DNA from: Candidatus Micrarchaeota archaeon
GTDB taxonomy: Archaea; Micrarchaeota; Micrarchaeia; Anstonellales; Bilamarchaeaceae
NCBI GenBank assembly: GCA_043821365.1
Contig: JBDRCX010000006.1
Coordinates: 40,840-104,839, forward strand
Length of the DNA: 64,000 nt
Direction of reading: 5' to 3'
Shown: piece by piece, positions 12,529 to 53,653 of the stretch
How the letters are laid out: each line of letters begins with the position of its first letter
Position numbering within the stretch: position 1 is the stretch's first letter
Notes under the pieces: model-generated
What the model was told of the DNA's origin: nothing
What the model saw: the letters and a program-made list of their open reading frames with translations, nothing else
The model's database searches: none
Made by a program: the position numbers and the translations under genes

Positions 12529-12530
12529 AA

Positions 12531-32470: not shown

Positions 32471-32574
32471 TATAGCTATTTTTATGTTTGTCGTTCTTAC
32501 TAATACGACAGCCTCGTGATATAGGCGATGAATAGACGAATAAAGTGTCTATAAGTAAATATATGTGGAGCGAA

Positions 32575-32584
32575 TATTTAAATA
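32575..32584 (+). promoter_or_regulatory. Putative TATA box (tatttaaata) about 23-32 nt upstream of the 32607 ATG
   Basis: The AT-rich box is at the canonical archaeal distance for a leaderless transcript. No SD is present. Confidence 0.3.
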
Positions 32585-32606
32585 ATAAACAGAACATAAT
32601 TAAAGT

Positions 32607-33263: not shown

Positions 33264-34027
33264 TTTTTTGCAATTATCCAAAGTGTATCAAAATATGCCC
33301 TAAAACTTTTTACTGCTTCTTCACTTTCAATCAGAAACCCTTTTGGCTCATTAGTAAAAAGTGCGATAAATGCTTTATTTTTATAGAAAACAATTTCCAT
33401 ATTCGTAATAAAATATTGCGGAAGAAAACGAATCTTAGATTTTTTCTGAGTAGTTGCCACCATCTTTCCTTTGATATCAAAATTAGCAAGCATGTTCACT
33501 TTGATACCCTTTACTACCCTTCTCAGATGATGTTTATAGAAAAAATTTCTCCACATCGAGGTTATTTCATCTTTTGTTTCCTCGCCATAATAGGCTCCAA
33601 TCACAAAATATTCATCATCCTTTTCCAACTCATCAACAAGATTCCTAAAGAAACTTGACACCCCCTTAAAGCCTTCATAAAGAGTTGCGTTGGTTTTCTG
33701 CTCTGCTGCTTTTTTTTGCATTTCTAAATCAGGAAGCAGTTTCATCAGAAGTTCCCGATTTTGTTCCATACGCAAACGATTTTCATCAACATAATCCATG
33801 ATTCGTTTAGGCTCCATTGCAGAGAAATGTTTTATTTTACCCTTGAGTACATGACCAACAAGACCTTTTTTTTCAAGTCGTCCCAGTATTTTGTAAACCT
33901 TGGATGATGAAACAGATGCAAGGGACGCGAGCTCTCCTGTTTTTGAACTGCCAAGTTTGAGAAGTGCAAGATAGACTTTTACCTCTCCTTTGCTCAATCC
34001 AATTTCTTCCAATAACTTCAAATCCAT
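33260..34027 (-). CDS. TrmB-family transcriptional regulator (255 aa)
   Basis: N-terminal LGLSKGEVKVYLALLKLGSSKTGELASLASVSSSKVYKILGRLEKKGLV. It is divergent from paralog gene 34122. Confidence 0.6.
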   Translation of the reverse strand: MDLKLLEEIGLSKGEVKVYLALLKLGSSKTGELASLASVSSSKVYKILGRLEKKGLVGHVLKGKIKHFSAMEPKRIMDYVDENRLRMEQNRELLMKLLPDLEMQKKAAEQKTNATLYEGFKGVSSFFRNLVDELEKDDEYFVIGAYYGEETKDEITSMWRNFFYKHHLRRVVKGIKVNMLANFDIKGKMVATTQKKSKIRFLPQYFITNMEIVFYKNKAFIALFTNEPKGFLIESEEAVKSFRAYFDTLWIIAKN

Positions 34028-34061
34028 GAATATTATTGATATTTACAATTTATTAATTTTA

Positions 34062-34086
34062 GCAACTACGACCCCTCCAGGGGAAG
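34062..34086. promoter_or_regulatory. Conserved GC-rich motif caactacgacccctccaggggaaga in the TrmB/paralog divergent intergenic region (copy 1)
   Basis: It is near-identical to 38237-38260 (ccaactacgacccccaggggggaa). Both contain a CCCC(N)GGGG inverted repeat. They are GC-rich islands in AT-rich spacers between a TrmB gene and a divergent paralog gene. Confidence 0.4.
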
Positions 34087-34121
34087 ATAGAATTAAAATA
34101 CACGCATTGGGCAGTTAGCCC

Positions 34122-35690
34122 ATGGATTTAGATATTTATAATCATTTAAACAAACAATGGAAATCAACATACAAAATTCTTCTTGGCCAAGAAGCAGATG
34201 AACTAATTGAGCATAAAGATTGGCTCTGTAGAGGTAATGGTCCAAGATTACTAAAAAAATCTTCTATTTCTGGAAAAGAAATTGTATATTCAAGTGATAA
34301 ATACTCTGATAATTCAAAATGGATAGGACATGATGAAGTGGGGGGGAAATTCGAACCATTGAATATGAATGAGATCAAAGATATTGATTCTATAATAGAG
34401 GCAGTAAGAGAAAGAATAACCTATTCTGGTAGTGTTGTTCTTGGAAACTCGAAATTTGTCAAAGGTAGTACAACCATTAGTGATTGTTTTTACATTTTGG
34501 ATTCAGAAAGAGTTGCATTTTCTAAAAATGTTGCGTACTCAACCAGAGGAGGGTACAGTGAGAACATATTCGGGTGTTATGGTTTCGGGCCAGTAACATT
34601 TGCAATAAAATCATATGGGATAACTGAATCAACCAGGATTTTTTTGACTTCAAAAGCAGATTTCTCTTCGGATATTTATTATTCGCATGGGATCTCAAAC
34701 TGTATGGAATGTATTTTTTCATTCAATATAAGAAGCAAAAGATATGCAATTGGAAATTTAGTTCTTCCAAAAGAAAAATATGCTTTGCTTAAAAAGAAAC
34801 TTCTTGCTGAGATTGCAGAAAAATTGAAAAAAGAAAAAACACTACCATCAATTGCTGAATTGATAAAGCATGAGGGAAATCCGATAGAATTGATAGATTT
34901 AGTTGGAACCACATCGAAAACTGAAAAGGAAGACAAACAAAGAATCGAAAAAGCATTTAAACAAACAACAGAGGTTTTGATTGGTAAACCATTGAATGGC
35001 ATAGATAAATATGCAACATGGATGAAACGTGAATCAAGTGTTTTATTGAAACCGGCAAACTCATGTATATCAGGAGAACCAATCACACTACCAGATTATG
35101 CAGGATTCATTGATTACCCGGATCAACGACTATTAACCCAAGAAGAAGCATACCGAGCAGGTGAAAAACTTGCCATTATAGAGGGAGAGGCACATAAATT
35201 ATCAATTGAAAACGCTTCTGTTATTCTTAGTAAAATAGCCTATTTCTGTCCGTTTTGGTTTGCAGGAAAACTTGAGAATAATATTGATTCACCATTGAAC
35301 ATTGATTCTAGAGATTGCTATAGTGGAATCTTATACATACGATCAAAATTATGTGCATTTTCTTTTAGCCCACGAAGTTGCGAATACTGTTTTGGTTCAA
35401 GAGAAGGAAGGCATGTTTCATTTTCCATAAATTCACATTTTTCTATGCGTGTAACCCGTTGTTTCGAAGTGGACCATTGCTCGGATTGCTCAGATTGCTA
35501 TTTTTGCCACAATTGCGAAAACGTTCAAGATTCAATGTTTTGTTTTAATGTAAAGAATTTGAGAAATGCAATTGGAAATACTCCAGTTGATCGCGGATTA
35601 TATCAACAAACAAAGACCAATTTGAGAGAGTGGTTAGCAGAAAAACTTGAACAGAAAAATAAGGTGGACTCAACTATTTTTTCACTCTAA
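34122..35690 (+). CDS. Cys-rich paralog family, fused N+C two-module protein (522 aa)
   Basis: N-module: WKSTYKILLGQEADELIEHKDWL, MNEIKDIDSIIEAV, CMECIFSFNIRSKRYAIGN. Linker KTLPSIAELI. C-module: IEKAFKQTTEVLIGKPLNGIDKYATWM, CFEVDHCSDCSDCYFCHNCENVQDSMFCFNVKNLRNAIGN. Confidence 0.55.
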   Translation: MDLDIYNHLNKQWKSTYKILLGQEADELIEHKDWLCRGNGPRLLKKSSISGKEIVYSSDKYSDNSKWIGHDEVGGKFEPLNMNEIKDIDSIIEAVRERITYSGSVVLGNSKFVKGSTTISDCFYILDSERVAFSKNVAYSTRGGYSENIFGCYGFGPVTFAIKSYGITESTRIFLTSKADFSSDIYYSHGISNCMECIFSFNIRSKRYAIGNLVLPKEKYALLKKKLLAEIAEKLKKEKTLPSIAELIKHEGNPIELIDLVGTTSKTEKEDKQRIEKAFKQTTEVLIGKPLNGIDKYATWMKRESSVLLKPANSCISGEPITLPDYAGFIDYPDQRLLTQEEAYRAGEKLAIIEGEAHKLSIENASVILSKIAYFCPFWFAGKLENNIDSPLNIDSRDCYSGILYIRSKLCAFSFSPRSCEYCFGSREGRHVSFSINSHFSMRVTRCFEVDHCSDCSDCYFCHNCENVQDSMFCFNVKNLRNAIGNTPVDRGLYQQTKTNLREWLAEKLEQKNKVDSTIFSL

Positions 35691-35739
35691 TGACAAATGT
35701 CAGTTCATCCTTATATCAGATAAATTTTCAGTAGATTGC

Positions 35740-37383
35740 ATGGAAGGTAGCTACAATGAACTCAACAAAGAATGGAAAATAACATCACGACTCGTATTTG
35801 GAGGAGAAATAGGGGAACTCCAAGATTATAGAGACTGGCTCATTGAATTGAATAATCCTAGATTTACAAAAAACTCCTCAATTTCTGGTAAGGAAACTAT
35901 TTTCTCAAGTAGTGAATATGATGACCAGTCCAGATTTCTGGCTCTTGACGAAATTCCAGCAACACAATATTTTGAACCATTGAAAAATCATCAGATTTTT
36001 CAAAATTTGAACGGTAAACCGTTCAATCCTTTGAATATCAATGAGATCAAAGATATTGATTCCATAGTAGAAGCGATCCAAGAAAGAATCTATTATTGTG
36101 GGAATATAGTTTTAGGTAATTCGAAGTTTGTTGAGAAAAGTTCAAACATAACAAACAGTTTCTATGTTTATGATTCTGTAAAAATTAGTGATTGTAAAAA
36201 TATAGCATACTCACAGTATCTTCGCCTATGTGAAAATGTATTCGGAACAAATGAGGGTGGAGAATCAAAATATTGCATACGGTGTTGTATACTTTTCAAA
36301 AATGCAAGAAGTTTTGAGTTGTGGAAAAGTACTTGTTGCACAGATTGTTATTATTCATTTGGATTGAATGGGTGTAATGATGTTATTTTCTCATTTAACA
36401 TCCAGGGAAAGTCCAACGTAATAGGAAATCTTTCGCTTCCAAAAGACAAATACCGTGAGATAAAGAAAAAACTACTTGATGAAATGAGAGACGAACTTGT
36501 TAAGACTAAAAAACTACCATCACTCGTAGAGCTGACTATAAAAGAACCGGAAATCCCTGATGGCTATGGTTTGTGTGGACAGGATAAGGAAAAAAGCAGA
36601 AGTACAGTTGATAGTGCATTTAGCAAAACTTCTGAACTTTTGTTTGGTCAACAACTTCAAGGAAAGATGGAGGATTACGATGAATGGTTACGCTCACATA
36701 TAATTGTCCCATATTCTGTGAAATCAGTACTAAGCAAAAAAACAGTCCAACTTTCTCAATGGCCTGGTTTGGCTCAGTTGCCAAAAAACAGGATAGTAAC
36801 TTTGAATGAGGCTAGAGAACTAGCCAAACTTATGATAACAAATGAGCAAGCAGAAAGAATATCACTAACAAATGCATCAGATTACTTAACAAAAATAGCA
36901 TATTTCCCACCTGAAGAGATGACAGGAGAAAATACAAACTTAATTGAATGTCAATGGGGATCATCAGCAGCAAATTGCTATCGATCTGTGATATGTGTAT
37001 ATAGTAAAAACTGCGGTTATTGTTCCTGGCCACGAAGTTCGGAAAATTGTTTTGGCTGTGGAATTGTTTTTGACTCTAATTTTTCGATGAAATGCTATGA
37101 TTCAATTAAACTTTCCAGATGTTTTGAAGTAGATGCATCATCATCCTGTACTGACACGTACTTTGCACATAACTGTGAAAATGTACGAGACTCGATGTTT
37201 TGCTTCAATGTAAAGAATTTGAAAAATGCAATTGGAAATTGTCAACTCCAAACTGATCAGTATAAGAGTATAAAATCATCATTACAAGTGCAACTCCATA
37301 ATGGATTAGAATTAAAAAAATGTCTTGGTCTAAGTATTTTTAGTCTTAATAGAAATAAGCCACTTAAAGCATATCCCACATAA
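35740..37383 (+). CDS. Cys-rich paralog family, fused N+C two-module protein (about 547 aa)
   Basis: ATG at 35740 (MEGSYNELNKEWKITSRLVFGGEIGEL); the track ORF opens at TTG 35647. INEIKDIDSIVEAI, linker KKLPSLVEL, C-terminal CFEVDASSSCTDTYFAHNCENVRDSMFCFNVKNLKNAIGN. Confidence 0.55.
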   Translation: MEGSYNELNKEWKITSRLVFGGEIGELQDYRDWLIELNNPRFTKNSSISGKETIFSSSEYDDQSRFLALDEIPATQYFEPLKNHQIFQNLNGKPFNPLNINEIKDIDSIVEAIQERIYYCGNIVLGNSKFVEKSSNITNSFYVYDSVKISDCKNIAYSQYLRLCENVFGTNEGGESKYCIRCCILFKNARSFELWKSTCCTDCYYSFGLNGCNDVIFSFNIQGKSNVIGNLSLPKDKYREIKKKLLDEMRDELVKTKKLPSLVELTIKEPEIPDGYGLCGQDKEKSRSTVDSAFSKTSELLFGQQLQGKMEDYDEWLRSHIIVPYSVKSVLSKKTVQLSQWPGLAQLPKNRIVTLNEARELAKLMITNEQAERISLTNASDYLTKIAYFPPEEMTGENTNLIECQWGSSAANCYRSVICVYSKNCGYCSWPRSSENCFGCGIVFDSNFSMKCYDSIKLSRCFEVDASSSCTDTYFAHNCENVRDSMFCFNVKNLKNAIGNCQLQTDQYKSIKSSLQVQLHNGLELKKCLGLSIFSLNRNKPLKAYPT

Positions 37384-38101
37384 ACCAAAAGAATTTTCTA
37401 TAACCATCTGCCAATTGCCTACTCTTCACTACGAATTGGATTGGGTTGTCACCCAACTTCCCAACTTCAACCCCAGTAAAACTAACCACATAATCTCCAA
37501 AAATATCGATTGCAGTTGGACTTGAATATTTTTTTGGTAGGAACTTATATGGTTTCCCAACAAATTTTAGTATCTCTGGTTTATTTTCCTTAACCTCATG
37601 ATCAAATAAATGCATGAATTTTATACCGCGTTTTTTTCTTTCACTATCAAACTTTGGAAGGAAATATTGCAATCTAGGATCAAGCCAAAATGCTTTTGCA
37701 CCTATGAAATAGACTGTTTCTTCTTGCTCAAGTATGTCGTTGAGGTAGTTTTTGAATCCTTCCATACCTCTATAAAAATAAGCTTCTTCATTTTCTCTAA
37801 CTTTCCGATATTCTTTCTGAAGCGAAGGAAGGATAGCACCCAATTCATTTTGTCTTTCTACAAGTATGTCTGCAAGCCTGTTTGGGTCCCTTGGGATATA
37901 ATGCTTTTTTCCGGATACTACCAACTCTGATATCAGGCCTTTATCGAGTAATTTTGCGATAGAATCGTAAATGTTTCTTCTATGAACACCAGAACGTACT
38001 GCTATCTTTTCTATTGGTGCCTGGCCCATTCTGATTAATGCTTCGTAAACCTTAACCTCATTGATTGTAAGGCCTATTTTTGCAAGTGTATCCTCGTACA
38101 T
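37364..38101 (-). CDS. TrmB-family transcriptional regulator (245 aa)
   Basis: N-terminal IGLTINEVKVYEALIRMGQAPIEKIAVRSGVHRRNIYDSIAKLLDKGLI. The 3' end overlaps the convergent paralog gene by 20 nt. It is divergent from paralog 38317. Confidence 0.6.
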   Translation of the reverse strand: MYEDTLAKIGLTINEVKVYEALIRMGQAPIEKIAVRSGVHRRNIYDSIAKLLDKGLISELVVSGKKHYIPRDPNRLADILVERQNELGAILPSLQKEYRKVRENEEAYFYRGMEGFKNYLNDILEQEETVYFIGAKAFWLDPRLQYFLPKFDSERKKRGIKFMHLFDHEVKENKPEILKFVGKPYKFLPKKYSSPTAIDIFGDYVVSFTGVEVGKLGDNPIQFVVKSRQLADGYRKFFWFMWDML

Positions 38102-38236
38102 AGTACTATGGTGACATATGTCACCAACATTATTTAAATATGCCCAGAGCGTAATAGTTTCAGGAAGTTTGAAAAGGGAAAATCAAACAAATTAGGTGGG
38201 GAGGATTATGATTACACATATTAGATTTAGCGTAAG

Positions 38237-38260
38237 CCAACTACGACCCCCAGGGGGGAA
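38237..38260. promoter_or_regulatory. Conserved GC-rich motif (copy 2) ccaactacgacccccaggggggaa in the TrmB/paralog divergent intergenic region
   Basis: See the motif at 34062-34086. The shared core is CAACTACGACCCC.CAGGGG.AA. Confidence 0.4.
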
Positions 38261-38316
38261 AATAAACTTAAAGAATAACATCTGGTGCAGTTATAAACAA
38301 CAAAAAGGCGAGGATT

Positions 38317-39909
38317 ATGGATAATCTGACTACTAACGAGCTTGAGAAGAAATGGAATAGCTCTTGCAAGCTAATCTTCAATCAAGAAATCGGAGATATG
38401 AACAGTTATGAACACTGGCTTACTGAACTTGTTGAACCTATTAATTATCACAAATCAAGCCTTTCTGGAAAAGACGTCATATCTGCACCAAACGGGTACT
38501 CTAAAGAATCAAAATGGCTTGCTTTCGATGAAGTTGATTTTAACAAGAAGTTCGAACCATTGAATATCAATGAAATTAAAGATATTGATTCATTAGTTCA
38601 AGCAATTTCAGAAAGATGGTACTACTCTGGAAACATATTTTTTGGGAATTCAGCATATATTGAAAAAAGCTCTAACATAAACGACAGTTTTTACATTTTC
38701 AAGAGTGCAAGATTCGGGAATTCAAAATATCTTGCCCATTGCACAATAGGAAGACAAAACCAGGAATGTTTTGGTTGTAATGTAATCAGTGAATCAAAAA
38801 ACTGTATTAAGTGTTATAGGTCTTTCCGTAATTCACGTTCATTTGAGCTTTGGATGAGCCAGAATTGCTCTGGATGTTACTACTCATTTGGATTGAATGG
38901 TTGTATTGATTGTATATTTTGCTTTAATGTTGAGAGCAGAAGACAATCCATAGGAAATCTAACGCTTGAACGTGATAAGTACATTAGCATAAAGAGTAAG
39001 TTACTAGAAGAAATAGCAGAAAAACTGCAAAAAGATCGTAGACTCATTTCCTTATTAGAGATAATTGACAAAGTTCCGCATAAAGGCCTTAGATTTAGTA
39101 ATAAAGATGGTATAAACGAACGAAATAATATAAATAAAAACAAAATTGAAAATGCATTTTCACAAACAACCAGCACATTATTTAGTAAAAAACTTGAAGG
39201 CATTGATGATTATTCAGATTATTTAAACAGACATATAAGAATAACAAAAAAATACTCATCAGCATTTAGTGGAGATGATCTTTTCATACCAGATTATGCA
39301 AATTATTCCAGATTACCTAAAGAAAGACTGCTTAGTTCAGGTGAGGCACACACTCATAGTAAGACGGTCCAGATAAAACCAAACGACCTAGAAAACCTAA
39401 ACTTAGACAATGTGCATGAAAAAATAGGTAGGATGTGTTTTTTCAATGCTGAGATGTTTGAAGGCACGAATTTGAATATGATTGAATGTGCAGTATCTGT
39501 TGATTCAGCAGATTGTTATCGGAGTTCAGTAACAGAATACTCGAAACACTGCGGGTATTCATTCTGGCCAAGAAGTTCCCAGTATCTGTTTGGTTGTGAT
39601 TCGCCTTTTGATTCAAGTTTTTGTATTAACTGTTATTCATGCACTTCACTTATACGATGTTTTGAAGTAGACTGTAGCGGCTACTGTTCAGATCTTTATT
39701 TTGGGCATAATTGCGAAAACGTTAGAGATAGCATGTTTTGTTTTAATGTCAAAAATCTCAGAAATGCAATTGGGAATGTACCACTACAATCTGATTCTTA
39801 CAAAAAAATCAAAGTAATGCTTCAGAACCAGATTCATGATGAATTACAATCAAAAAAATTCTTAGAATGGGATATTTACTCCCTGAATAGAGGTGGCAGA
39901 CATGGCTAA
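38317..39909 (+). CDS. Cys-rich paralog family, fused N+C two-module protein (530 aa)
   Basis: LEKKWNSSCKLIFNQEIGDM, INEIKDIDSLVQAI, linker RRLISLLEII, C-terminal CFEVDCSGYCSDLYFGHNCENVRDSMFCFNVKNLRNAIGN. The stop overlaps the next ORF start (ATGGCTAA). Confidence 0.55.
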   Translation: MDNLTTNELEKKWNSSCKLIFNQEIGDMNSYEHWLTELVEPINYHKSSLSGKDVISAPNGYSKESKWLAFDEVDFNKKFEPLNINEIKDIDSLVQAISERWYYSGNIFFGNSAYIEKSSNINDSFYIFKSARFGNSKYLAHCTIGRQNQECFGCNVISESKNCIKCYRSFRNSRSFELWMSQNCSGCYYSFGLNGCIDCIFCFNVESRRQSIGNLTLERDKYISIKSKLLEEIAEKLQKDRRLISLLEIIDKVPHKGLRFSNKDGINERNNINKNKIENAFSQTTSTLFSKKLEGIDDYSDYLNRHIRITKKYSSAFSGDDLFIPDYANYSRLPKERLLSSGEAHTHSKTVQIKPNDLENLNLDNVHEKIGRMCFFNAEMFEGTNLNMIECAVSVDSADCYRSSVTEYSKHCGYSFWPRSSQYLFGCDSPFDSSFCINCYSCTSLIRCFEVDCSGYCSDLYFGHNCENVRDSMFCFNVKNLRNAIGNVPLQSDSYKKIKVMLQNQIHDELQSKKFLEWDIYSLNRGGRHG

Positions 39910-40135
39910 ACAGTTATCGTCTTCATGCATACGACAACAGGATAAATATGCTGAAAGAGCAAGTTTACAAATGGGAAAGAAAACTTGGGAAACAAATAAA
40001 CAGCCAGTTTTGGACCTTATCTTTTCGATGAGTTTTTGGGTACCTTTTTCCAAAAAAGGTACAAAACCGCTCTACAGCGGCACTAGAGATATATATTTCA
40101 AAAAAGAGATAGTTGGTGTGGGAATATGGAAGTAA
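39902..40135 (+). CDS. Small hypothetical protein (77 aa) bridging the paralog gene and the HerA-like ATPase
   Basis: ATG at 39902 with GAGGTGG 7 nt upstream. It overlaps the upstream stop in the same ATGNNTAA pattern used by the split paralog pairs, and overlaps the ATPase start by 10 nt. It contains a hydrophobic segment VLDLIFSMSFWVPF. Confidence 0.3.
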   Translation: MAKQLSSSCIRQQDKYAERASLQMGKKTWETNKQPVLDLIFSMSFWVPFSKKGTKPLYSGTRDIYFKKEIVGVGIWK

Positions 40136-42270
40136 GAGAAATACACCTCTACTCGGAAAAAGTAGAGGATAATGATGTTAAGAATCTGTTCAACCAGGTT
40201 ACCAAATCTAGGTTTCCACTATTTGGACTGATAGATCTGTCTAATATTTTCTCTCCTAATGCCCTTACGCTAGTAGTTAAAAGGAATATAAATACAGTAA
40301 AATTCTATGCAAAGGAAAAAGATTGCCTCCAGAATATCTCTCCACTAATTTTTCCATACAGAATGTGTGATCCAAGCTTGCTGAAGCTTTCTGGGGGCTC
40401 TTATTTCCCTTTTCCAAGAATGTACATCATCAATGGTGCAACCCATGATCTGCTTGACTTTATACTAAAAGAAAAGATAGAACAAATGACATTAAACGTA
40501 ACAAAAGTCATGGGACAGTTCATTGCAAACGGAACAGTAGTATGTGAAAATGGACAAAAAGGGATGTTCACTGTGCTAGCACCTCAAAAATTCCTTACGA
40601 TTAATCTTGAGAAAAACCCATCAATTTACATTGAACTCCTTGAGCCATTGCCAAAACAAATATATGTAAGCTCAAAATTCCCTGTTTTTGAAGAAACCGG
40701 AATTACTATGGGTGTGGATAACTACGACCCATTACAACACACAATAATAGCAGGAACTTCTGGTTCAGGAAAAAGTAAAGGGCTTTTTGTGTTGTTAAAA
40801 GCATTAGAAGCAAAGTACAAAGACGGTGCACGGGTGGTTGTGGTTGACCCACATGGGGAATTTGCAAGACTGTTCCCTCATGCCAAAGTTATAGATTTCA
40901 TAAAAAATTATGTTGAGCCACTAGACGTAGGAAAAGATAAATCCCCAATGCTGACCCAGTTGGTCTCACAATTAATTACCTCTTCGATAGGGCAAGAAAA
41001 CAAATATTCAGAACGTGTATTGTTTTATACTGTTCACCTTCTCTCATCAATCAATAAACTTGACCTTAACAATATAAGCCTACTTTTAACAGACTCATCA
41101 GTAAAGGCAGAATATGTCAGCATGTGTGATAATGATGAGGTAAAAAGATTCTTTGATGAAGAATACAATGACATACACATCCACCATTTCAACAATGCTA
41201 TTCTTCCAATTTTGAACTTTATTGGGGAGTACCAATTGTATTTAGGAAAGGAGAAAAAACGAGAGGGGCTTTTGGAATCCATCCAACAGAACAGAATAAC
41301 TGTAGTTGCATTTGACCCCAAATTCTTCGGAAGAAGAATGATTAGTTTCCTTGCTGGAGCAGTTATCAATCAGATGTATATTCTAGCAATTACAGGAAAA
41401 CTCCAAGAAAAACCAACTGTTTTGGTTGTTGATGAATTCCCAAGAGTGGAAACAAGAGTAACCAAGGACATTCTTTCAGAAACAAGAAAATTCAATTTAT
41501 TCGCATACCTATCATGCCAGTATTTGGGCCAGCTGAGCAAAGAAGTTCTTGATTCAATTGTATCAAATGCAAGAAACATAATTGCATTTAAGATAAATAA
41601 ACAAGATGCTGCAATGCTCAGCTCAATCATGGAAATAAAGGTCGAGGAATACTTCAAAAAGAGCAGAGCAACAACTGAACTTGAAGAGTCTAAAAAAGAG
41701 ATGTTTGTACGTTTACACCAGAGAGAGTGCATTGTCAGATTATTTGATGGTGTCAAATATCTTTTACCAATGAAACTAAAGATTGTTGATGCAAAAAAGT
41801 GGGGGCTGAGAGAAGGGACAGTACCTTACGTTGAAAGAGATCCACCACCAGAGGCACCAGGAGTGCCAAGATCAAAACCAATGACAAATGCATTCCAAGG
41901 ACAAGAACCTCAAGAAAGCGAAAAACCACAAATGACACCAGCAGGACCATTACCAAGAATGTCTGTTTCGCAACAGCAGGGAATACCAGGAGCACCACCA
42001 ATTGACAATGACACTGGACTGTATTGTGTAGCTGAAGAAGGAGAAACACCACCAGAAGAAGAAAAAGAAGAGAAACCAGCATTACCAGAACCAATGACTG
42101 AGAGTCCATGGTTGCAAGAAACACCAGATGCGATATACCAATTGGAAAAAGCAAAACTTAATGGTGTTATAAAAGATATGCCAAAACAACCTAAAGAAAC
42201 AGAAGATACAGATAAAAAACCAGAAGAGAAAAAACACAAAAAATCAAAAAAACCTAAGAAGAAAGAGTGA
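40126..42270 (+). CDS. HerA/FtsK-superfamily (DUF87-type) ATPase with an N-terminal unknown domain and a Pro/Glu/Lys-rich disordered C-terminal tail (714 aa)
   Basis: Walker A IIAGTSGSGKSKG is followed by the HerA-typical VVVDPHGEF. Walker B is VLVVDEFPRV. The C-terminal roughly 160 aa are low-complexity (PPPEAPGVP...EEEKEEKPALPEP...KKHKKSKKPKKKE). It sits where the two paralog arrays converge. Confidence 0.6.
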   Translation: MEVREIHLYSEKVEDNDVKNLFNQVTKSRFPLFGLIDLSNIFSPNALTLVVKRNINTVKFYAKEKDCLQNISPLIFPYRMCDPSLLKLSGGSYFPFPRMYIINGATHDLLDFILKEKIEQMTLNVTKVMGQFIANGTVVCENGQKGMFTVLAPQKFLTINLEKNPSIYIELLEPLPKQIYVSSKFPVFEETGITMGVDNYDPLQHTIIAGTSGSGKSKGLFVLLKALEAKYKDGARVVVVDPHGEFARLFPHAKVIDFIKNYVEPLDVGKDKSPMLTQLVSQLITSSIGQENKYSERVLFYTVHLLSSINKLDLNNISLLLTDSSVKAEYVSMCDNDEVKRFFDEEYNDIHIHHFNNAILPILNFIGEYQLYLGKEKKREGLLESIQQNRITVVAFDPKFFGRRMISFLAGAVINQMYILAITGKLQEKPTVLVVDEFPRVETRVTKDILSETRKFNLFAYLSCQYLGQLSKEVLDSIVSNARNIIAFKINKQDAAMLSSIMEIKVEEYFKKSRATTELEESKKEMFVRLHQRECIVRLFDGVKYLLPMKLKIVDAKKWGLREGTVPYVERDPPPEAPGVPRSKPMTNAFQGQEPQESEKPQMTPAGPLPRMSVSQQQGIPGAPPIDNDTGLYCVAEEGETPPEEEKEEKPALPEPMTESPWLQETPDAIYQLEKAKLNGVIKDMPKQPKETEDTDKKPEEKKHKKSKKPKKKE

Positions 42271-43828
42271 ACACGCTCCACTTCAAACTTTTATTATTTT
42301 CTAGTTTTTGGTTTATTTCATCTAAAACCATTTTTTTAATTTTAAGATACCTCTCTTTACCAACCTCAACATTGCCTATAGCGTACCGTTTATTCTTTAG
42401 ATTAAAACAGAACAGACAATTCGACAAACTTTCGCAGTTATGGCAGAATAATGAATCTGAGCAATCCCTGCAATTATCCATTTCAAAACATCTTGATAAT
42501 TTTTGAGAATGATAACAATTGATACAGAAATTAGAATCGAAAATAGTATCAAATCCAAAGCAATTATTGGAATCCTTGGGCCACATACCACAAGCACAGT
42601 ATTTTGACCTCACTACGGCAGATGCCTTGTAACAATGTGCTGCTCCAACAGTGACCGTAGACTCGATAAAATTCTCAACTTTGCCCTCTCTAATATCAAC
42701 AGTAAAATAGGATATTTTTCCAATATTTTCATGTGCATTTTCCAAACTTAATTTTTCGACTTCGTCTAGGTTAAATTTCACAGACTCGCCAATCTGTCTA
42801 GCCTCACCCATTGTAACAACAATATCCTCTGGGAGGGCCTCAAGTGCAATAACATAGGGTAGCATAAGTAGTCTTTTTCCACTGATGGCAGATTTTCTTT
42901 CCTCTATTTTATGTGCATGCCTATAGAGCCAATCATGATACTCGTCGATATCCTTTAGTCTTTTTCCAAAAATTACTGCCGATGTATTTGTAAATGCATT
43001 TTCAACTATTTCCTTATTTTCAGAATATTTTTCTTCATCAAGTGGAGGTAAATTTGGCTTTTGTAATTTGCCTTTTTTAACAATATCAAGCAAAGAAGGC
43101 AATGATTTGTTCTTTTTTAGTTCATCAACCATTTGTTCACAGAGGGATTTTTTTATTGAGAAATATTTTTCTTTGTCGATTTCCAGATTCCCTATGCAGT
43201 ATCTTTTATTTTTTAAGTGGAAAGAAAAAAGACAGTTGGAACAACCAGTTAGGTTTGATACATAATAACAATCTGAACAGTTCTGAGCAGACCAAATTTC
43301 AAACGAACGTTTAACAGAAAATGTCTGAGTACAACGAATACAGAATTCTGTTTCTCCTGGGCCATGGACTCCAAAACAATTGTTGCTATCCCTACCAACA
43401 GTGCAGTAAGCAAGATATTTTGAATTTATAAATTGGGCTGAATCAGTTACATAAAAACAATCAGTAAGATTACAACTTCTTTCTACATGGCTTGAGTTAC
43501 CAAGAACAGTATTACCACAGTAATAAGCCCTATCCGAAACCGCTTGTATAAGAGAATCAATATCTTTAATTTCGTTAATATCCAATGGTTCGAACTTCTT
43601 GTTAAAATCAACTTCATCGAAACTTATCCACTTGGAATTTGGATAATACTCCTTTATTGAAAATGCAACTTCTTTCCCAGATAGGGTTGATTTTCTGATT
43701 AGGTTTGAATCGATAAGACCAGAAAGCCATTTTGAATATTCTTCAAGCTCACCAATCTCTTCGCCAAATAATAGTTTTGTAGTTTTTTTCCATGATTGAT
43801 TCAGTATATTATACGTTTCTGATGACAT
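42254..43828 (-). CDS. Cys-rich paralog family, fused N+C two-module protein (524 aa)
   Basis: WKKTTKLLFGEEIGELEEYSKWL, INEIKDIDSLIQAV, linker KSLPSLLDIV, C-terminal CFEMDNCRDCSDSLFCHNCESLSNCLFCFNLKNKRYAIGN. The 3' end overlaps the convergent ATPase gene by 17 nt. Confidence 0.55.
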   Translation of the reverse strand: MSSETYNILNQSWKKTTKLLFGEEIGELEEYSKWLSGLIDSNLIRKSTLSGKEVAFSIKEYYPNSKWISFDEVDFNKKFEPLDINEIKDIDSLIQAVSDRAYYCGNTVLGNSSHVERSCNLTDCFYVTDSAQFINSKYLAYCTVGRDSNNCFGVHGPGETEFCIRCTQTFSVKRSFEIWSAQNCSDCYYVSNLTGCSNCLFSFHLKNKRYCIGNLEIDKEKYFSIKKSLCEQMVDELKKNKSLPSLLDIVKKGKLQKPNLPPLDEEKYSENKEIVENAFTNTSAVIFGKRLKDIDEYHDWLYRHAHKIEERKSAISGKRLLMLPYVIALEALPEDIVVTMGEARQIGESVKFNLDEVEKLSLENAHENIGKISYFTVDIREGKVENFIESTVTVGAAHCYKASAVVRSKYCACGMWPKDSNNCFGFDTIFDSNFCINCYHSQKLSRCFEMDNCRDCSDSLFCHNCESLSNCLFCFNLKNKRYAIGNVEVGKERYLKIKKMVLDEINQKLENNKSLKWSVFTLSS

Positions 43829-43829
43829 G

Positions 43830-44594
43830 CTATTTTTTACCCCCCAAATTGTAGATGTTCAGAACAAGCTTTTTTTCATTTTCTATTTTTTCTGCAATTT
43901 CACTCACAATCATTTTCTTTATTCTAAGGTACTCCTCCTTTCCAACTTCCACATTCATTATAGCATATCTAAGCGATTTTGCATTAAAACAGAACATACA
44001 ATTGTTCAAATTCTCGCAGTTATGGCAAAAGTAGCAATCAGTACAGTTGCTACAATCGCTTAATTCAAAGCACCTTGCTAGTTTTACGGAATTATAACAT
44101 TTGATAGAAAAATTTGAAGCAAATAAAAAGTGGGAACCAAAACAATATTCTGATTCTCTTGGCCAAAAACAGTAAGCATCACATTTTGAATAGATATACC
44201 AGACTCCATCTAAACAATGTTGGGCATGCATACAGGTGGATGTTTTTTGAAGGTCTTGATTCTGGCCAAGCATGACATCAGAAGTTACATAGTTTATTTC
44301 TTGTAATTTTTCTGAGGCATTAGATAGGGTTAATGTCTTTGCACCATGTTCTGAGATTTGTTTTTTACCAAGTTCAAGTGATTCTTCTAAAGTAACAAGA
44401 TTCTTTTTTATGGAATTGAAGAAGAGGATATCTGGCACGTAGACAATCTTGTCACTTACCTGGGATTTGGTATGGAGTGCTTTGTTTACATTTTCTAAAA
44501 GCCAATTTCGATAGCTTTCCAAATTAGTCAATTTTCTACCGAAAATAATTGAAGTGGTTTCCTGAAAGGCTTTTTCAATTTCCAAATTACCCAT
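43830..44594 (-). CDS. Cys-rich paralog family, C-module-only protein (about 254 aa)
   Basis: MGNLEIEKAFQETTSIIFGRKL...CFELSDCSNCTDCYFCHNCENLNNCMFCFNAKSLRYAIMN. ATG at 44594. Its start overlaps the upstream N-module stop as ATGGGTAA. Confidence 0.5.
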   Translation of the reverse strand: MGNLEIEKAFQETTSIIFGRKLTNLESYRNWLLENVNKALHTKSQVSDKIVYVPDILFFNSIKKNLVTLEESLELGKKQISEHGAKTLTLSNASEKLQEINYVTSDVMLGQNQDLQKTSTCMHAQHCLDGVWYIYSKCDAYCFWPRESEYCFGSHFLFASNFSIKCYNSVKLARCFELSDCSNCTDCYFCHNCENLNNCMFCFNAKSLRYAIMNVEVGKEEYLRIKKMIVSEIAEKIENEKKLVLNIYNLGGKK

Positions 44595-45357
44595 GCACAT
44601 CACCGTTAATTATATCTATCAATGATGGAAGTTTCTTTCTTGCTTTCAGAATCTCACGCATTTCACCAATGAGTTTTTCCTTTAATTTATGGTATTCTTC
44701 AGGACTAAATTGGTGGTTTCCGATCATATAACTTTTATTTCTTTGATTGAAAGAAAACATACAATTGGTGCAATTTTCCAGACTTCCTGTAAAATAACAA
44801 TCTGATGCAACATAGTTTCTGATGGTTTCCAAGCATCGGACATTTTTGTAGGTTTCAAAGGTTTTGATATTAAACTTACTCCCTTCACCAATTGCATTAC
44901 CACCAAAGATGTACTCTGCAAATCTTAGAACTGATGAGTATGCGACAAATTTACAATCATAAACATCTTGGGTTTTATAAATAAATGAGGAATTGATGCA
45001 CCTATTAGAGACCTGAACTTCACGGGAGTTACCAAGAACAACATTACCAATATAATATGCTTTTTCATTAACAGCTTCAATAATGGAATCAATATCTTTG
45101 ATTTTGTTTATATCATATTTTTGCTTGCCAATTGTGTTCATATATTGATCAATTTCATCAAGGCTTAGGAATTTGGCCCCTGGAGCAACTTTTTCAGATG
45201 ATACAATAACTTCTTTCCCAGATAAGGCGGATTTTTTCATACCAAATGGATCAACATATCTTAGAAGCCATGTCTCGTATTCACCAAGGTTGCCAAGTTC
45301 TTCTCCAAATAGCACCTTGGATGTTTTTTTCCATGCAACATTAATATCAGAATTCAT
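44587..45357 (-). CDS. Cys-rich paralog family, N-module-only protein (256 aa)
   Basis: WKKTSKVLFGEELGNLGEYETWL, INKIKDIDSIIEAV, CTNCMFSFNQRNKSYMIGN. It ends at the linker KKLPSLIDIINGDVHG. Confidence 0.5.
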   Translation of the reverse strand: MNSDINVAWKKTSKVLFGEELGNLGEYETWLLRYVDPFGMKKSALSGKEVIVSSEKVAPGAKFLSLDEIDQYMNTIGKQKYDINKIKDIDSIIEAVNEKAYYIGNVVLGNSREVQVSNRCINSSFIYKTQDVYDCKFVAYSSVLRFAEYIFGGNAIGEGSKFNIKTFETYKNVRCLETIRNYVASDCYFTGSLENCTNCMFSFNQRNKSYMIGNHQFSPEEYHKLKEKLIGEMREILKARKKLPSLIDIINGDVHG

Positions 45358-46127
45358 TATTGCTGCCCCACATTAAAAATATTCAAACTAAGTCGTTTGT
45401 CTTTTTCTAGTTTTTTTGTAAGTTCTTCAAGAACTTTTTGTTTTATTTCGAGGTATTTTTCTTTACCGACTTCGATATTGGCAATTGCGTACCTCTTTGC
45501 TTTTACATTAAAACAAAACATGCAGTTATTCAGATTTTCACAATTATGACAGAACAGTGAATCAGTACAATTGCTACAGTCACTCATTTCAAAGCAACGA
45601 TTAAGGTTTTCAGAATTGTAACACTTGATACAGAATTGAGAGGAAAAAGTGTAGAAAGTACCAATATTGTAATCTGATTGCCTTGGCCAAAAACAATAGA
45701 AACAATATTTGGAACGGACAAGAGCAACACACTTGTAACTATAATGAGATGAATAGTAAAAATCACAATCAATAAGATTGCTGCACTCACCATAGCGAGT
45801 ATTTGGAGTGGTGGTGGATAATTTTGCCAAAAGATTTTTAGCAGTGGAAAAGGTTAGTTGGTTTAGTTCATCATCAGAAAGATGGTTTTTTCCGTGGGTA
45901 AAATAGGCTTCTTCTATGGTAAGTATGTTGTGTTTTATGTCTCGATAAAAATCAAATGGTGGAAGGTATATTTTTTCACCACTAATAAGTGATTTGCCAT
46001 ATTCATTCGTTGATACATTTTCAGTTAGCCAATCTTCATAATCTTTGAAATTACAAAGTTTTTTGCCTAGAACAATCGAAGTAATGGTCTGAAAAGATTT
46101 TTCAAGATCAGATTCTAGTTTATCCAT
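45357..46127 (-). CDS. Cys-rich paralog family, C-module-only protein (about 256 aa)
   Basis: ATG at 46127 (MDKLESDLEKSFQTITSIVLGKKL...). CFEMSDCSNCTDSLFCHNCENLNNCMFCFNVKAKRYAIAN. The stop overlaps the next N-module ATG (TAATG). Confidence 0.5.
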   Translation of the reverse strand: MDKLESDLEKSFQTITSIVLGKKLCNFKDYEDWLTENVSTNEYGKSLISGEKIYLPPFDFYRDIKHNILTIEEAYFTHGKNHLSDDELNQLTFSTAKNLLAKLSTTTPNTRYGECSNLIDCDFYYSSHYSYKCVALVRSKYCFYCFWPRQSDYNIGTFYTFSSQFCIKCYNSENLNRCFEMSDCSNCTDSLFCHNCENLNNCMFCFNVKAKRYAIANIEVGKEKYLEIKQKVLEELTKKLEKDKRLSLNIFNVGQQ

Positions 46128-46908
46128 TCCAATCACCTTTCCCACTTATTATCTCTATTATCGAGGGAAGTTTCTTCTTTCTTTTAAGTTCATCGGCAAA
46201 TTCACCAACTAATTTTGATTTCAGTTCAGCATATTTATCTTTAGTCAGCTGTATATTGCCAATTAGATAGTTCTTATTTCTTTGATTAAATGAAAAGATA
46301 CAGTTGGTACAGTCCTCAAGACTTGCAGAATAGAAACTATCAGATGCAACATTACAATGATAGGTTTCCAAGCACCGGAGTTGTTTGTGCGGATCAAGGA
46401 CTTTTATACAGAACTGAATCTCTCCACCAAAACAACAACCAAATGAGTACTCTGGACTGCGAATAGAAGTTGTATATGCAACGTATTTTCCATCATAAAC
46501 ATCCTGGCAACCCATGGCATAAACAGTATTAACGCAACGGTGTGAGTTTATCACATTGGTTGAATGTCCCAAAACAATATTTCCAGCATAACAGACTTTT
46601 TCTTTAGCTGCATGAATAATTGAATCAACATCTTTGATATCATTGATATTGAAGGGCATTGAAAACATTCTTTTTTCGTATTCATGCATTTCCTCATGAC
46701 CTATCACTGGTGCTTGTTTTGGCACCCTATTGGATGAGATTGTAACATCATTGCCACTTAGAATGGATTTTCTTTTTACGATTGGGTCAGTATATGTTTT
46801 TAGATAATTTGTAAATTCTGATAGTTCACCAACTTCTTGACCAAGCAGAACCTTACAAGTGGATTTCCAAGATTTATTTAATTGATTAATAATCATAGCA
46901 TCAGACAT
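46120..46908 (-). CDS. Cys-rich paralog family, N-module-only protein (about 262 aa)
   Basis: ATG at 46908 (MSDAMIINQLNKSWKSTCKVLLGQEVGEL). INDIKDVDSIIHAA, CTNCIFSFNQRNKNYLIGN, linker KKLPSIIEIISGKGDWNG. Its stop/start overlap with the next gene is ATGGATAA. Confidence 0.5.
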   Translation of the reverse strand: MSDAMIINQLNKSWKSTCKVLLGQEVGELSEFTNYLKTYTDPIVKRKSILSGNDVTISSNRVPKQAPVIGHEEMHEYEKRMFSMPFNINDIKDVDSIIHAAKEKVCYAGNIVLGHSTNVINSHRCVNTVYAMGCQDVYDGKYVAYTTSIRSPEYSFGCCFGGEIQFCIKVLDPHKQLRCLETYHCNVASDSFYSASLEDCTNCIFSFNQRNKNYLIGNIQLTKDKYAELKSKLVGEFADELKRKKKLPSIIEIISGKGDWNG

Positions 46909-47689: not shown

Positions 47690-47690
47690 A

Positions 47691-51609: not shown

Positions 51610-51696
51610 GTTAGTATGGACGCTTTAATCATATAATAGAGTAACACCGTTGCAGAGCGGTTTTGGCATCTCTCAATGAAATAATGCGTTGTTTAA

Positions 51697-53549: not shown

Positions 53550-53653
53550 AGGCTAGTATTGTGTGGAAAACTATATAAAAGTGATGAATAGTGATAGAGA
53601 ATAAGTGTTTTAATTATTAGCAACTATTTAACATTTGTTAAATACTGGTTGTT

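Follow-up and report, generated by a model that had tools for sequence, protein, structure and literature searches.

A predicted soluble FtsK-HerA superfamily ATPase and a neighbouring family of predicted beta-solenoid proteins in Micrarchaeota and bacteria

HerA is known from several partner assemblies (HerA-NurA, Sir2-HerA or 'Nezha', and DUF4297-HerA), in which NurA, Sir2 and DUF4297 dock on the ATPase. The substrate of the related VirB4 is debated, and EccC and EssC, which have more distant folds, handle proteins. In the Ced system of Sulfolobales, the archaeal VirB4-related ATPase CedD oligomerises and is needed for DNA import (PMC11868833).

Here we have analysed a window of 64,000 nucleotides from a tiny, symbiotic Candidatus Micrarchaeota archaeon, which encodes an ATPase of this kind with the following layout.

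40126-42270, plus strand: ATPase gene, ATG start, 714 aa
40126-40710, plus strand: N-terminal domain of the ATPase (aa 1-195), beta-rich, conserved
40711-41790, plus strand: P-loop core of the ATPase (aa 196-555), FtsK/HerA/VirB4 clade, with a helical insert
41791-42267, plus strand: Pro/Glu/Lys tail of the ATPase (aa 556-714), variable, with a polybasic end
39902-40135, plus strand: 77-aa ORF, judged not to be a gene, overlying an upstream hairpin and the ATPase operator, TATA box and ribosome-binding site

The initial annotation had placed the start at 39902, which is that of the spurious 77-aa ORF; the ATPase itself starts at 40126. Its description of the 714-aa protein is otherwise confirmed by the sequence. 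The Walker A motif GTSGSGKS spans aa 210-217; VVVDPHGEF comes next at aa 238-246, and the Walker B VLVVDEFPRV, with its catalytic Glu, at aa 432-441. The protein also has the conserved Arg downstream of Walker B and, as the polar sensor residue, a Gln. The Pro/Glu/Lys-rich tail, put at about 160 residues, has 159 (Pro 16%, Glu 14.5%, Lys 13.8%), with a net charge of +7 in the final 19. The N-terminal domain of about 200 residues that had gone unrecognised corresponds to ~195 aa with no match in Pfam, NCBIfam or PDB sequences, and is strongly conserved across orthologues; its model is beta-rich, and the aa 1-195 profile, compared with PDB sequences with a HAS-barrel in mind, gave no match. The reported 17-nt overlap at the 3′ end was also found, the ATPase stop (42270) lying inside the last minus-strand array gene (42254-43828) and overlapping its stop. 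Hydropathy analysis revealed no membrane-spanning segment in the ATPase or any paralogue; the top 19-residue value for the ATPase (1.66, aa 405) falls within the core, and there is none in the N-terminus.

From its RecA-like P-loop core and its structural similarity to members of the superfamily, the protein is a P-loop ATPase of the FtsK-HerA superfamily, in the VirB4/VirD4/HerA/DptH clade, with intact catalytic motifs, and it is predicted to be soluble. It passes Pfam DUF87 (PF01935; 42.3 bits against a gathering threshold of 23.2), with a match at aa 204-323 that covers 80 of 220 profile positions, and TrwB_AAD_bind (35 against 20.5 bits), over only 58 residues around Walker A. At the superfamily level the earlier label 'HerA-type' is thus sound; more narrowly it is not, since by fold DptH, VirB4 and TrwB lie at least as near, and the curated HerA, VirD4, VirB4 and FtsK models are all missed by a wide margin. 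The NCBIfam HerA models score 17-21 bits against cut-offs of 800-970 (NF040819: 17.2 against 970, in the Walker A region only), TraD_Ftype 24 against 521, conju_CD1115 25 against 250, and VirB4 TIGR00929 12.8 against 643. TraG-D_C (18.6 against 22 bits) and FtsK/SpoIIIE PF01580 (20.2 bits, cut-off 24, and no membrane segment) are not reached either. The best NCBIfam match is CedD (E 1.2e-9), at 37 bits against a cut-off of 600 and in the Walker A region only. The structural neighbours include DptH, VirB4, TrwB, HerA and FtsK, with HerA-DUF4297, TdpA and Nezha HerA among the top matches, and also DotL and the more distant EccC and EssC; the likeness to VirB4 concerns the fold of the C-terminal ATPase domain only, and VirB3/VirB6-type genes were not found in the window or among conserved neighbours. 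Some orthologues are named 'type IV secretion system DNA-binding domain-containing protein' by NCBI.

The family beside the ATPase, first described as Cys-rich, falls into subfamilies A and B and their fusions (AB) in an all-against-all BLAST comparison. Its genes in the window are listed below.

30175-30912 (A) and 30909-31625 (B), plus strand: split A/B partner pair
34122-35690, plus strand: fused AB partner gene
35647-37383, plus strand: fused AB partner gene
38317-39909, plus strand: fused AB partner gene
42254-51609, minus strand: convergent partner array, made up of the next nine genes
50044-51609, minus strand: array gene 1, AB
48443-50047, minus strand: array gene 2, AB
47691-48506, minus strand: array gene 3, A
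46901-47698, minus strand: array gene 4, B
46120-46917, minus strand: array gene 5, A
45357-46145, minus strand: array gene 6, B
44587-45357, minus strand: array gene 7, A
43830-44603, minus strand: array gene 8, B
42254-43828, minus strand: array gene 9, AB

The family has no relative in Pfam, NCBIfam or PDB. In the model of a fused AB protein (pLDDT 87.9, pTM 0.85), which is a compact beta-solenoid, each unit is predicted to begin with a small alpha/beta domain at the N-terminus, to continue as a narrow beta-solenoid whose hexapeptide repeat gives coils of roughly 12 residues, and to close with a long C-terminal helix, so that these proteins appear to be two-lobed narrow beta-solenoids. Their only fold neighbours are weak ones (curli CsgA, antifreeze beta-helices and phage appendage helices). 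We recognised no nuclease, DNA-binding or other enzymatic signature and no signal peptide in them, and their pI is near-neutral (6.2-8.8); the alignment shows a conserved C-terminal motif, for example L-x-I-Y-N-L-G. Cysteine does not define the family, since its content varies from 2.1 to 5.8% among the window paralogues and a bacterial partner contains just four cysteines. The array is collinear with that of L001, one of the two closest genomes, gene for gene (77-83% identity per gene, against 87% for the ATPase), and partner orthologues are 43-79% identical across Micrarchaeota; the paralogues thus appear to be stable and under selection.

The ATPase and the partner are neighbours well beyond this genome. 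Among GTDB ATPase loci, the partner family was present in 56 of 68 by tblastn and in 55 by HMM. In 38 Micrarchaeota species loci the ATPase was complete and flanked by 3 kb or more on each side; among these, a partner lay within 2.5 kb of the ATPase in 31 and within 250 nt in 27, and in seven loci with full flanks no partner gene occurred within 10 kb. When all locus ORFs were clustered, the partner was the sole neighbour cluster found in most loci (the next clusters occurred in 20 and 18). The order A then B is invariable, and ATPase orthologues and arrays are syntenic, well conserved and set amid housekeeping genes. Of 23 partner loci flanked by 2.5 kb or more on each side, 17 had no ATPase within reach, so that partner genes can lie, and their products perhaps work, at a distance from the ATPase.

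More distant, second-tier ATPase homologues occur in bacterial contexts, likewise amid housekeeping genes, and two of their contigs were placed near Saccharibacteria and gut Bacilli. In all seven such loci looked up, an ORF of 230-240 aa directly follows the ATPase homologue (one is ended by the contig end after 26 aa), with a 4-nt ATGA overlap at four junctions. Searched with the A/B HMMs, the six complete bacterial partners give E-values of 1e-21 to 1e-40, and A3 aligns with P0434 in hhalign at a probability of 98.3%; conserved adjacency and homology of the bacterial partners are thus established at the level of sequence comparison. The ATPase core is 28% identical to P0286 over 360 aa, and the N-domain is probably common to the bacterial homologues as well (hhalign 87.8%). 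This two-gene operon of some small-genome bacteria, an ATPase followed by one partner, is the simplest and possibly the ancestral form.

The genomic coupling of ATPase and Cys-rich family, argued earlier from the window, is therefore borne out by the conserved adjacency, the bacterial operon and a shared operator (see below): a survey of homologue neighbourhoods found co-occurrence in 31/38 Micrarchaeota and 7/7 bacterial loci. Just as had been noted, no canonical partner (NurA, Sir2, DUF4297 or T4SS genes) was found in the flanking proteins scanned, where NurA, Mre11 and Rad50 were also missing, as they were among conserved neighbours. Transfer genes, phage genes and genes for known defence partners are all absent, and so is a conjugative backbone. 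We define an ATPase that has this N-domain and core and lies beside one or more A/B homologues as a new module, represented in the window, in the 31 Micrarchaeota loci and in the seven bacterial loci.

The shared control of the two gene groups rests on the elements below.

40067-40080, unstranded: palindromic operator CCGCTCTACAGCGG at the ATPase promoter, 7 nt upstream of its TATA box
40088-40098, plus strand: TATA-box-like element GATATATATTT of the putative ATPase promoter
51647-51660, unstranded: second operator copy (minus-strand reading CCGCTCTGCAACGG), 38 nt upstream of the first array gene's ATG
51697-52413, minus strand: HTH_10 (PF04967) regulator gene (Pfam, 2.1e-19), directly upstream of the operator-bearing array promoter
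31712-32470, minus strand: TrmB regulator (Pfam), in a cluster between partner genes (31712-34027)
32607-33263, plus strand: HTH_10 regulator (Pfam), same cluster
33260-34027, minus strand: TrmB regulator (Pfam), same cluster

A GGTG ribosome-binding site follows GATATATATTT about 10 nt before the ATPase ATG, and the second operator lies 6 nt upstream of the TATA-like TCTATTATATG. CCGYT-N4-ARCGG has only two exact matches in the window, at the ATPase and array promoters. The palindrome-TATA pair is conserved upstream of the ATPase in many species: in most of 15 GTDB loci, and also in three metagenome loci, the operator precedes the ATPase start by 38-98 nt (mostly 46-50), and in 12 GTDB and three metagenome loci it precedes the first array gene by 32-73 nt (mostly 38-40). 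In 1.04 Mb of loci, CCG[CT]T-N4-A[AG]CGG occurs 29 times, against about 1.5 expected by chance from base composition; 15 of them precede the ATPase and 12 the first array gene, most at 38-50 nt from the start codon. Both promoters thus bear what is, by its sequence, the same predicted operator. An HTH_10 homologue takes the same position in 8 of the 12 loci with an operator at the array promoter, and the protein encoded at 51697-52413 is probably the one that binds it. Since the two promoters have the same operator and an HTH_10 regulator lies upstream, the system looks inducible. A further TrmB gene (37364-38101, minus strand) interrupts the plus-strand AB genes (34122-39909), and AACTACGACCCC..GGGG occurs upstream of 34122 and 38317, in intergenic regions that these two genes share with divergent TrmB genes.

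The 77-aa ORF had been taken as a translational link between the last plus-strand paralogue (38317-39909) and the ATPase. The overlaps are real (8 nt with the paralogue, 10 nt with the ATPase start); a gene and a translational link are not supported, and the ATPase has its own conserved putative promoter. The ORF matches no family in Pfam or NCBIfam, and tblastn recovers nothing but its final ~40 codons, in L001 and L002, the genomes closest to this one. This stretch, with about one synonymous to seven non-synonymous differences (counted by eye), is the operator palindrome, TATA box and GGTG site. We have therefore rejected the ORF as a gene.

Taken together, we consider it about an even bet that the ATPase is the motor subunit of an undescribed two-part cytoplasmic system whose second part is the partner family. 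The ATPase would presumably form a hexameric ring, as its relatives do, on which the partners might dock as adaptor, regulatory or effector subunits, in analogy to NurA, Sir2 and DUF4297 on HerA. From a single-partner form, the partner would have split into A and B types in Micrarchaeota, and A-then-B pairs or AB fusions would have been amplified into arrays, while additional single copies lie at other places in the genome. In the window and in closer relatives, the ATPase and the convergent array would be transcribed from two promoters with the same operator. The ring may spend ATP on moving or remodelling a polymer, for which DNA is the most probable candidate, and the A/B isoforms could give one motor different targets or settings. 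DNA is our leading guess for the substrate of the complex: among the closest folds HerA, TrwB, DptH and FtsK handle DNA, but VirB4 is one of them too. Against the proposal stand the near-neutral pI of the partners, which show no nuclease or DNA-binding signature, the nine units of the paralogue array, an unusual number if they were plain adaptors, the seven full-flank loci with no partner nearby and the 17 partner loci with no ATPase.

The presence of TrwB, DotL and EccC/EssC among the structural neighbours brings up another reading, in which a coupling-type motor (a type IV coupling protein or type VII EccC/EssC-like) would recognise the A/B proteins as substrates, perhaps via a C-terminal motif such as the one conserved in their alignment, and pass them on to a channel in the membrane, whose genes would lie elsewhere, for export to the cell surface or into a host cell. 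Paired or fused partners beside a motor, together with dispersed extra copies, resemble the Esx and PE/PPE pairs, which are paired substrates of type VII systems. However, VirD4, TrwB and EccC are membrane-anchored and the ATPase, by hydropathy, is not; no channel or other secretion gene occurs among the conserved neighbours; and the partners have no signal peptide and are 43-83% identical between species, unlike typical effectors. The lineages identified so far (Micrarchaeota and the Saccharibacteria-like contig) are known for cell-attached lifestyles, and Patescibacteria are rich in orphan VirD4-like genes whose function is open (PMC12102498), both of which favour export. The tight 1:1 bacterial operon better fits subunits of a complex, and we regard the export reading as unlikely.

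It is improbable that the A/B solenoids instead stack end to end, bactofilin/curli-like, into a multi-isoform filament or tubule that the ATPase assembles, remodels or dismantles. The weak likeness to CsgA, antifreeze and phage appendage helices, the many stable and individually conserved isoforms, and the compact, confident AB model would all suit such a structure; the flanking N-domain and long C-terminal helix in that model might block stacking, however, and a single partner gene suffices in bacteria. To our knowledge, FtsK-HerA ATPases are not filament assembly factors, with the exception of VirB4 in pilus biogenesis.

A new HerA-type defence system, with the A/B proteins as antiviral sensors or effectors of the ATPase ring as in Sir2-HerA, DUF4297-HerA or DptFGH, was one of two options offered by the initial annotation, beside a translocase or assembly motor acting on the paralogues, and is the less likely of them; we judge it distinctly doubtful. 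DptH, HerA-DUF4297, TdpA and Nezha HerA are top structural matches, and paralogue multiplication and dedicated regulators do occur in defence loci, but PADLOC gave only weak, partial matches to the ATPase (mad8 at 40 bits, HerA models at 12-31 bits over ~50 residues, confined to the Walker A region) and none to the partners, which have no recognisable enzymatic domain. The orthologues, which are widespread in the phylum, show synteny and vertical conservation and lie amid housekeeping genes in archaea and bacteria, the paralogues evolve almost as slowly as the ATPase, and no relatives were found in phages or viral contigs, with plasmid matches remote only (<=31% identity, <=55% coverage).

That the ATPase is a gene of an integrated element, conjugative or mobile, or merely adjoins an unrelated family, as TrwB_AAD_bind, the sub-threshold TraG-D_C and the type IV secretion names might suggest, is scarcely credible: the window holds no other transfer gene, relaxase or integrase, the plasmid matches are remote, and the reading is contradicted because adjacency is conserved and the operator is common to the ATPase and the array units.

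Returning to the two-part motor, the placements of the pair so far are Micrarchaeota (DPANN), a Saccharibacteria-like (CPR) contig and a contig resembling gut Bacilli. It might, as a long shot, be a module serving the lifestyle of cell-attached organisms that are ultra-small or have small genomes, a cytoplasmic motor with interchangeable beta-solenoid adaptors that takes in or hands over macromolecules at the contact site, for example host DNA for nucleotide salvage. If true, this would be a new kind of uptake or exchange machine, with a parts list unrelated to type IV or Ced systems.

Compared with the known systems, the ATPase differs from CedB/CedD in having no adjacent CedA-type membrane proteins or pilins, and from the VirD4/TrwB/DotL coupling proteins and VirB4 in having neither N-terminal membrane helices nor T4SS, relaxase or pilin genes close by. 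Unlike DptH/DndH of the DptFGH phosphorothioate-dependent restriction system, it shows no sequence-level family match and no DptF/DptG or dnd genes close by, and is conserved phylum-wide and in bacteria with a different, dedicated partner. The partner has no sequence relationship to the narrow 12-residue beta-helices of Tenebrio molitor antifreeze protein and curli CsgA; it is predicted to be cytoplasmic and two-lobed, to carry an additional domain at its N-terminus and to have a long helix at its C-terminus, and its cysteines are dispensable. Unlike the HerA of the known partner assemblies, the ATPase described here carries an unrecognised N-domain and lies in a conserved housekeeping context, not in a Mre11-Rad50 operon or a defence island, beside a predicted beta-solenoid partner that bears no nuclease, NADase or other enzyme signature and has been multiplied into A/B arrays.

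The source of the window is a Micrarchaeota (DPANN) archaeon, and the surroundings of the ATPase gene are archaeal housekeeping genes; its neighbours include TrmB regulators and an ATP-dependent DNA ligase, together with Sec-type and RNA-polymerase-subunit-like proteins, the latter two read from translations. The genes at the centre of this analysis are:

34122-39909 (+), stretch containing fused paralogues (AB genes) of the Cys-rich partner family
39902-40135 (+), ORF of 77 aa
40126-42270 (+), ATPase of 714 aa (N-domain aa 1-195, core aa 196-555, tail aa 556-714)
42254-51609 (-), partner array converging on the ATPase gene

The motifs on which the initial annotation had based its HerA/FtsK-like label are all present in the ATPase ORF, as is the Pro/Glu/Lys-rich tail (aa 556-714), which has a polybasic end. 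The 17-nt convergent overlap with the last array gene (42254-43828) and the overlaps of the 77-aa ORF with both of its neighbours are likewise real. In databases, the protein is named only as a 'DUF87 domain-containing' or 'type IV secretion system DNA-binding domain-containing' protein. Only two Pfam families pass their thresholds, DUF87 (42.3 bits versus 23.2) and TrwB_AAD_bind, the latter over a 58-residue stretch only, and the protein falls more than tenfold short of each of the curated NCBIfam models for CedD, TraD, VirD4-like, HerA, antiphage HerA, VirB4 and EccC. A structure model of aa 1-565 (pLDDT 83) consists of three parts, namely a beta-rich N-domain (about aa 1-170), a low-confidence linker and a P-loop core with a helical insert. 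Its structural matches are spread over the superfamily, with scores of 29.2 for DptH, 28.7 for the VirB4 C-domain, 25.8 for TrwB, 24.5 for HerA, 19.8 for DotL and 18.2 for FtsK. Since the curated models were missed while the folds are similar, the catalytic residues vary little or not at all among orthologues, and no membrane segment is predicted from hydropathy, the HerA/FtsK-like label holds at the superfamily level, but the ATPase fits no named family within it.

Among 20 orthologues, aa 1-555 are highly conserved, including the unrecognised N-domain, the profile of which gave no match to PDB sequences, and the tail is the sole part that does not align. Within this otherwise unalignable tail, a motif LPEPMTESPWLQETPDAIYQLEK (42080-42140, aa ~652-675) is kept in the closer orthologues P0001, P0003, P0005, P0010 and P0019, and may be a docking peptide.

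Scanning one genome per GTDB species yielded 68 ATPase loci. Every taxon named for them is a Micrarchaeota-type archaeon, a few being given only as 'archaeon' or ainarchaeum, and the species representatives span several named Micrarchaeota lineages. When the 14 paralogues of the window were used as queries, tblastn gave a match in 56 of the 68 loci and an HMM search in 55. Linkage was counted in the 38 loci in which the ATPase is complete and flanked on each side by 3 kb or more; the partner family lies within 2.5 kb of the ATPase in 31 of these, and within 250 nt in 27. No partner was found within 10 kb in seven loci. A divergent partner hidden in these seven was considered and rejected, as a relaxed HMM detected nothing and the flanking ORFs that were read look like ordinary housekeeping genes. 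When all ORFs of the loci were clustered, the partner was the sole neighbour family present in most loci, the next clusters occurring in 20 and 18. The commonest layout is that of a partner array convergent on the ATPase gene, with 3′ ends abutting or overlapping, and the number of A-B units varies from one to nine per locus (nine in the window). Together with the shared operator and the bacterial operon described below, these counts strongly support the genomic coupling of the ATPase and the Cys-rich family; the initial annotation, which had proposed it, was mostly right in this observation.

The partner family also occurs by itself. Only 6 of 23 metagenome partner loci with flanks of 2.5 kb or more in both directions contain the ATPase. 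Many of these loci hold solitary AB genes, far from any ATPase (among L070-L148, for example L082, L084, L109, L120, L130, L133 and L136), and several of them stand beside TrmB regulators; a TrmB gene is present in the same locus in 5 of 19 cases, about a quarter. No CCGYT-N4-ARCGG palindrome was found at the solitary partner genes of the metagenome loci.

The 77-aa ORF had been taken as a link that chains translation of the ATPase to the last upstream paralogue. This proved to be wrong, since the ORF has no family match and its conservation is confined to the putative ATPase promoter. With tblastn, only its last ~40 codons were matched, in the two closest genomes only, and in these codons we counted manually about one synonymous versus about seven non-synonymous differences. 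Judged by sequence, the conserved DNA before the ATPase reads as a promoter with the following elements:

40067-40080, palindrome CCGCTCTACAGCGG
7 nt after the palindrome CCGCTCTACAGCGG, TATA box GATATATATTT
about 10 nt before the ATPase ATG, GGTG

This layout of palindrome and TATA box recurs upstream of the ATPase in many species, which argues for a promoter of its own and against chaining to the upstream paralogue. Just upstream of the palindrome is a perfect hairpin, GGTACCTTTTT-CC-AAAAAAGGTAC (40037-40060). At the equivalent site of the Ca. Bilamarchaeum dharawalense locus L001 (~9912-9935), the sequence is GGCACCCTTTT-CC-AAAAGGGTGCC; both arms differ yet still pair, so that the pairing is preserved. 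The hairpin may serve the upstream paralogue as a terminator-like element, or may be a second site of protein binding.

The palindrome has only two exact CCGYT-N4-ARCGG matches in the window, one in the ATPase promoter and the other before the minus-strand array:

51647-51660, second operator, with a TATA-like box 6 nt downstream and the first minus-strand array gene starting 38 nt downstream

The 68 loci, 1.04 Mb in all, contain 29 copies of the motif, versus about 1.5 estimated by chance from base composition. In 15 cases the motif precedes the ATPase and in 12 the first gene of the array, usually at a distance of 38-50 nt from the start codon. The same operator pair is present in three metagenome loci. 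In 8 of the 12 array promoters a gene for an HTH_10 regulator ends just past the operator (51697-52413 in the window), making its product the obvious candidate for the operator-binding protein. Beside this regulator gene are two radical-SAM-like genes, 52443-53549 (with a weak SPASM match) and 54787-55896, with a myo-inositol-1-phosphate synthase gene (53649-54785) between them.

The plus-strand AB genes starting at 34122 and 38317, which are divergent from TrmB genes, have a different common motif, AACTACGACCCC(N1-4)GGGG followed by an A/T-rich box, in these promoter regions:

~34040-34100, shared with the divergent TrmB gene 33260-34027
~38240-38300, shared with the divergent TrmB gene 37364-38101

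The plus-strand partner genes seem to be under a second regulatory circuit.

The partner family comprises two subtypes, A and B, each of ~255 aa, which always follow the order A then B or are fused as AB (~525 aa). Searches of Pfam, NCBIfam, PADLOC and PDB sequences gave no match, and a hit to TRM1 (TIGR00308, 24 versus 281 bits) was taken as cysteine-rich noise. The databases hold 618 homologues; all those with an organism name are Micrarchaeota-type, and these are annotated as 'hypothetical' or 'uncharacterised'. An AB fusion was modelled with confidence (pLDDT 87.9, pTM 0.85), each half having a small N-terminal domain, short strands at a six-residue period and a long C-terminal helix; the structural matches are phi29 gp12 (7.4), the Tenebrio antifreeze protein (6.6) and curli CsgA (6.4). 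In this reading of the repeat, the cysteines would occupy inward-facing ladder positions. A role as metal ligands is unsupported, because the Cys content is variable (2.1 to 5.8% among the window paralogues), exchange for Ser or Ala is seen in the alignment, that with Ser being common, and one bacterial partner has only four cysteines. The proteins have near-neutral charge and no membrane segment.

Gene by gene, the window array has the same order as that of L001, with 77-83% identity per array gene versus 87% for the ATPase. On this sequence comparison, the paralogues are old, stable and selected rather than fast-changing. One AB paralogue (35647-37383, +) has, as called, a TTG start and a 44-nt overlap with the end of the previous gene, together with an N-terminal extension of ~30 aa and a 17-aa insertion absent from other members; its true start may lie further downstream.

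A profile search with the ATPase over 1.84 billion representatives gave matches in three tiers. The top tier consists of the Micrarchaeota orthologues, the second of roughly 100 representatives with 125-303 bits (full-length ones 546-751 aa), and the third of lower-scoring proteins, one of which belongs to a different family (DUF8128 plus DUF87). All seven second-tier proteins that were looked up lie in bacterial contexts (sigma-70, DnaG, GreA, DnaE, UvrB, PolA, GatCAB). In each of these loci the gene after the ATPase is a 230-240-aa ORF, one of them ending with its contig after 26 aa, and at four of the junctions the two genes overlap by 4 nt (ATGA). These ORFs have no Pfam match, and the six complete ones match the A/B HMMs with E values of 1e-21 to 1e-40; hhalign of the archaeal partner alignment with one bacterial partner gave 98.3% probability. 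Between the archaeal and bacterial ATPases, identity is 28% over 360 aa of the core, and the N-domain is likely to be common to both. Two loci could be placed with the help of a neighbouring protein and its 90%-identity cluster: the first is near Ca. Onthousia (a genus of gut Bacilli), the second near a Ca. Saccharibacteria bacterium. At least 894 proteins make up the bacterial partner family, and each is either unnamed or 'hypothetical'. A gene for an AraC-type HTH_18 regulator with a GyrI-like/Cass2 domain stands just upstream of the operon in three (L151, L154 and L157) of the six loci with upstream sequence. The operon adjoins the dnaG-sigma70 genes in L149 and L155, and directly follows uvrB in L153. 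According to a 2025 survey, Patescibacteria carry thousands of VirD4-like genes of open function that lie far from virB4 (PMC12102498); some of these orphans may belong to the bacterial ATPase family, and may be explained by the module.

Taken together, the ATPase is a catalytically intact, soluble protein of the FtsK-HerA type with a dedicated beta-solenoid partner family; their adjacency is conserved in archaea and bacteria, and one operator is common to both promoters in the clade of the window. By analogy with its relatives, the ATPase would form a hexameric ring to which the partner proteins would bind, the solenoids serving as adaptor, regulatory or effector subunits of a cytoplasmic complex. 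We favour such a complex because the tight 1:1 bacterial operon and the slow evolution of the partner suit subunits of one assembly better than they suit secreted substrates or sensors in an arms race. Each of three alternatives, namely that the A/B proteins are secreted, that the solenoids assemble into filaments or that the pair is a new defence system, has a similar, low probability. Because DNA is what most of the close relatives by fold act on, and because the tail of the Micrarchaeota proteins has a polybasic end, DNA is the leading guess for the substrate, though only a guess. The dedicated regulators in both domains suggest that the system is induced rather than constitutive. A conjugative or mobile element was rejected, there being no transfer genes and only remote plasmid matches, the best of which has an uninformative neighbourhood. 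A phage or virus origin was also rejected, as tblastn of the ATPase and partner against phages, an IMG/VR scan and Foldseek against BFVD detected no relatives, and PHROGs gave weak P-loop matches only.

Other wholly or largely unrecognised genes were seen elsewhere in the window. Three consecutive large ORFs (9614-13979, -; 506, 466 and 482 aa), rich in Pro/Ala/Glu/Gly, have no Pfam match, and their segment is richer in G+C (0.39-0.40 versus ~0.35); no other part of the window has so negative a GC skew. A 730-aa protein (14127-16319, -) has a PP2C phosphatase domain (aa 439-599) as its only recognisable part, and an 807-aa protein (22225-24648, +) has no Pfam match.

This conserved, co-regulated module offers a handle on a sizeable part of the genomic dark matter in Micrarchaeota and bacterial contigs. 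Its two-gene version in bacteria is compact enough to be co-expressed, solved structurally and assayed for ATPase activity, and the operator with the HTH_10 regulator constitutes a testable archaeal regulatory circuit. If the module does serve host interaction or DNA handling in episymbionts, it would bear on their way of life. We found no description of it in the literature searched on Micrarchaeota, DPANN and Saccharibacteria, and one paper on cysteine-rich repeats and another on DPANN nanotubes turned out to be unrelated to it. As far as we have searched, no description exists of the partner family, N-domain, A/B expansion, shared operator or bacterial two-gene form; an FtsK-HerA ATPase with a dedicated partner is, as a type of system, already known.
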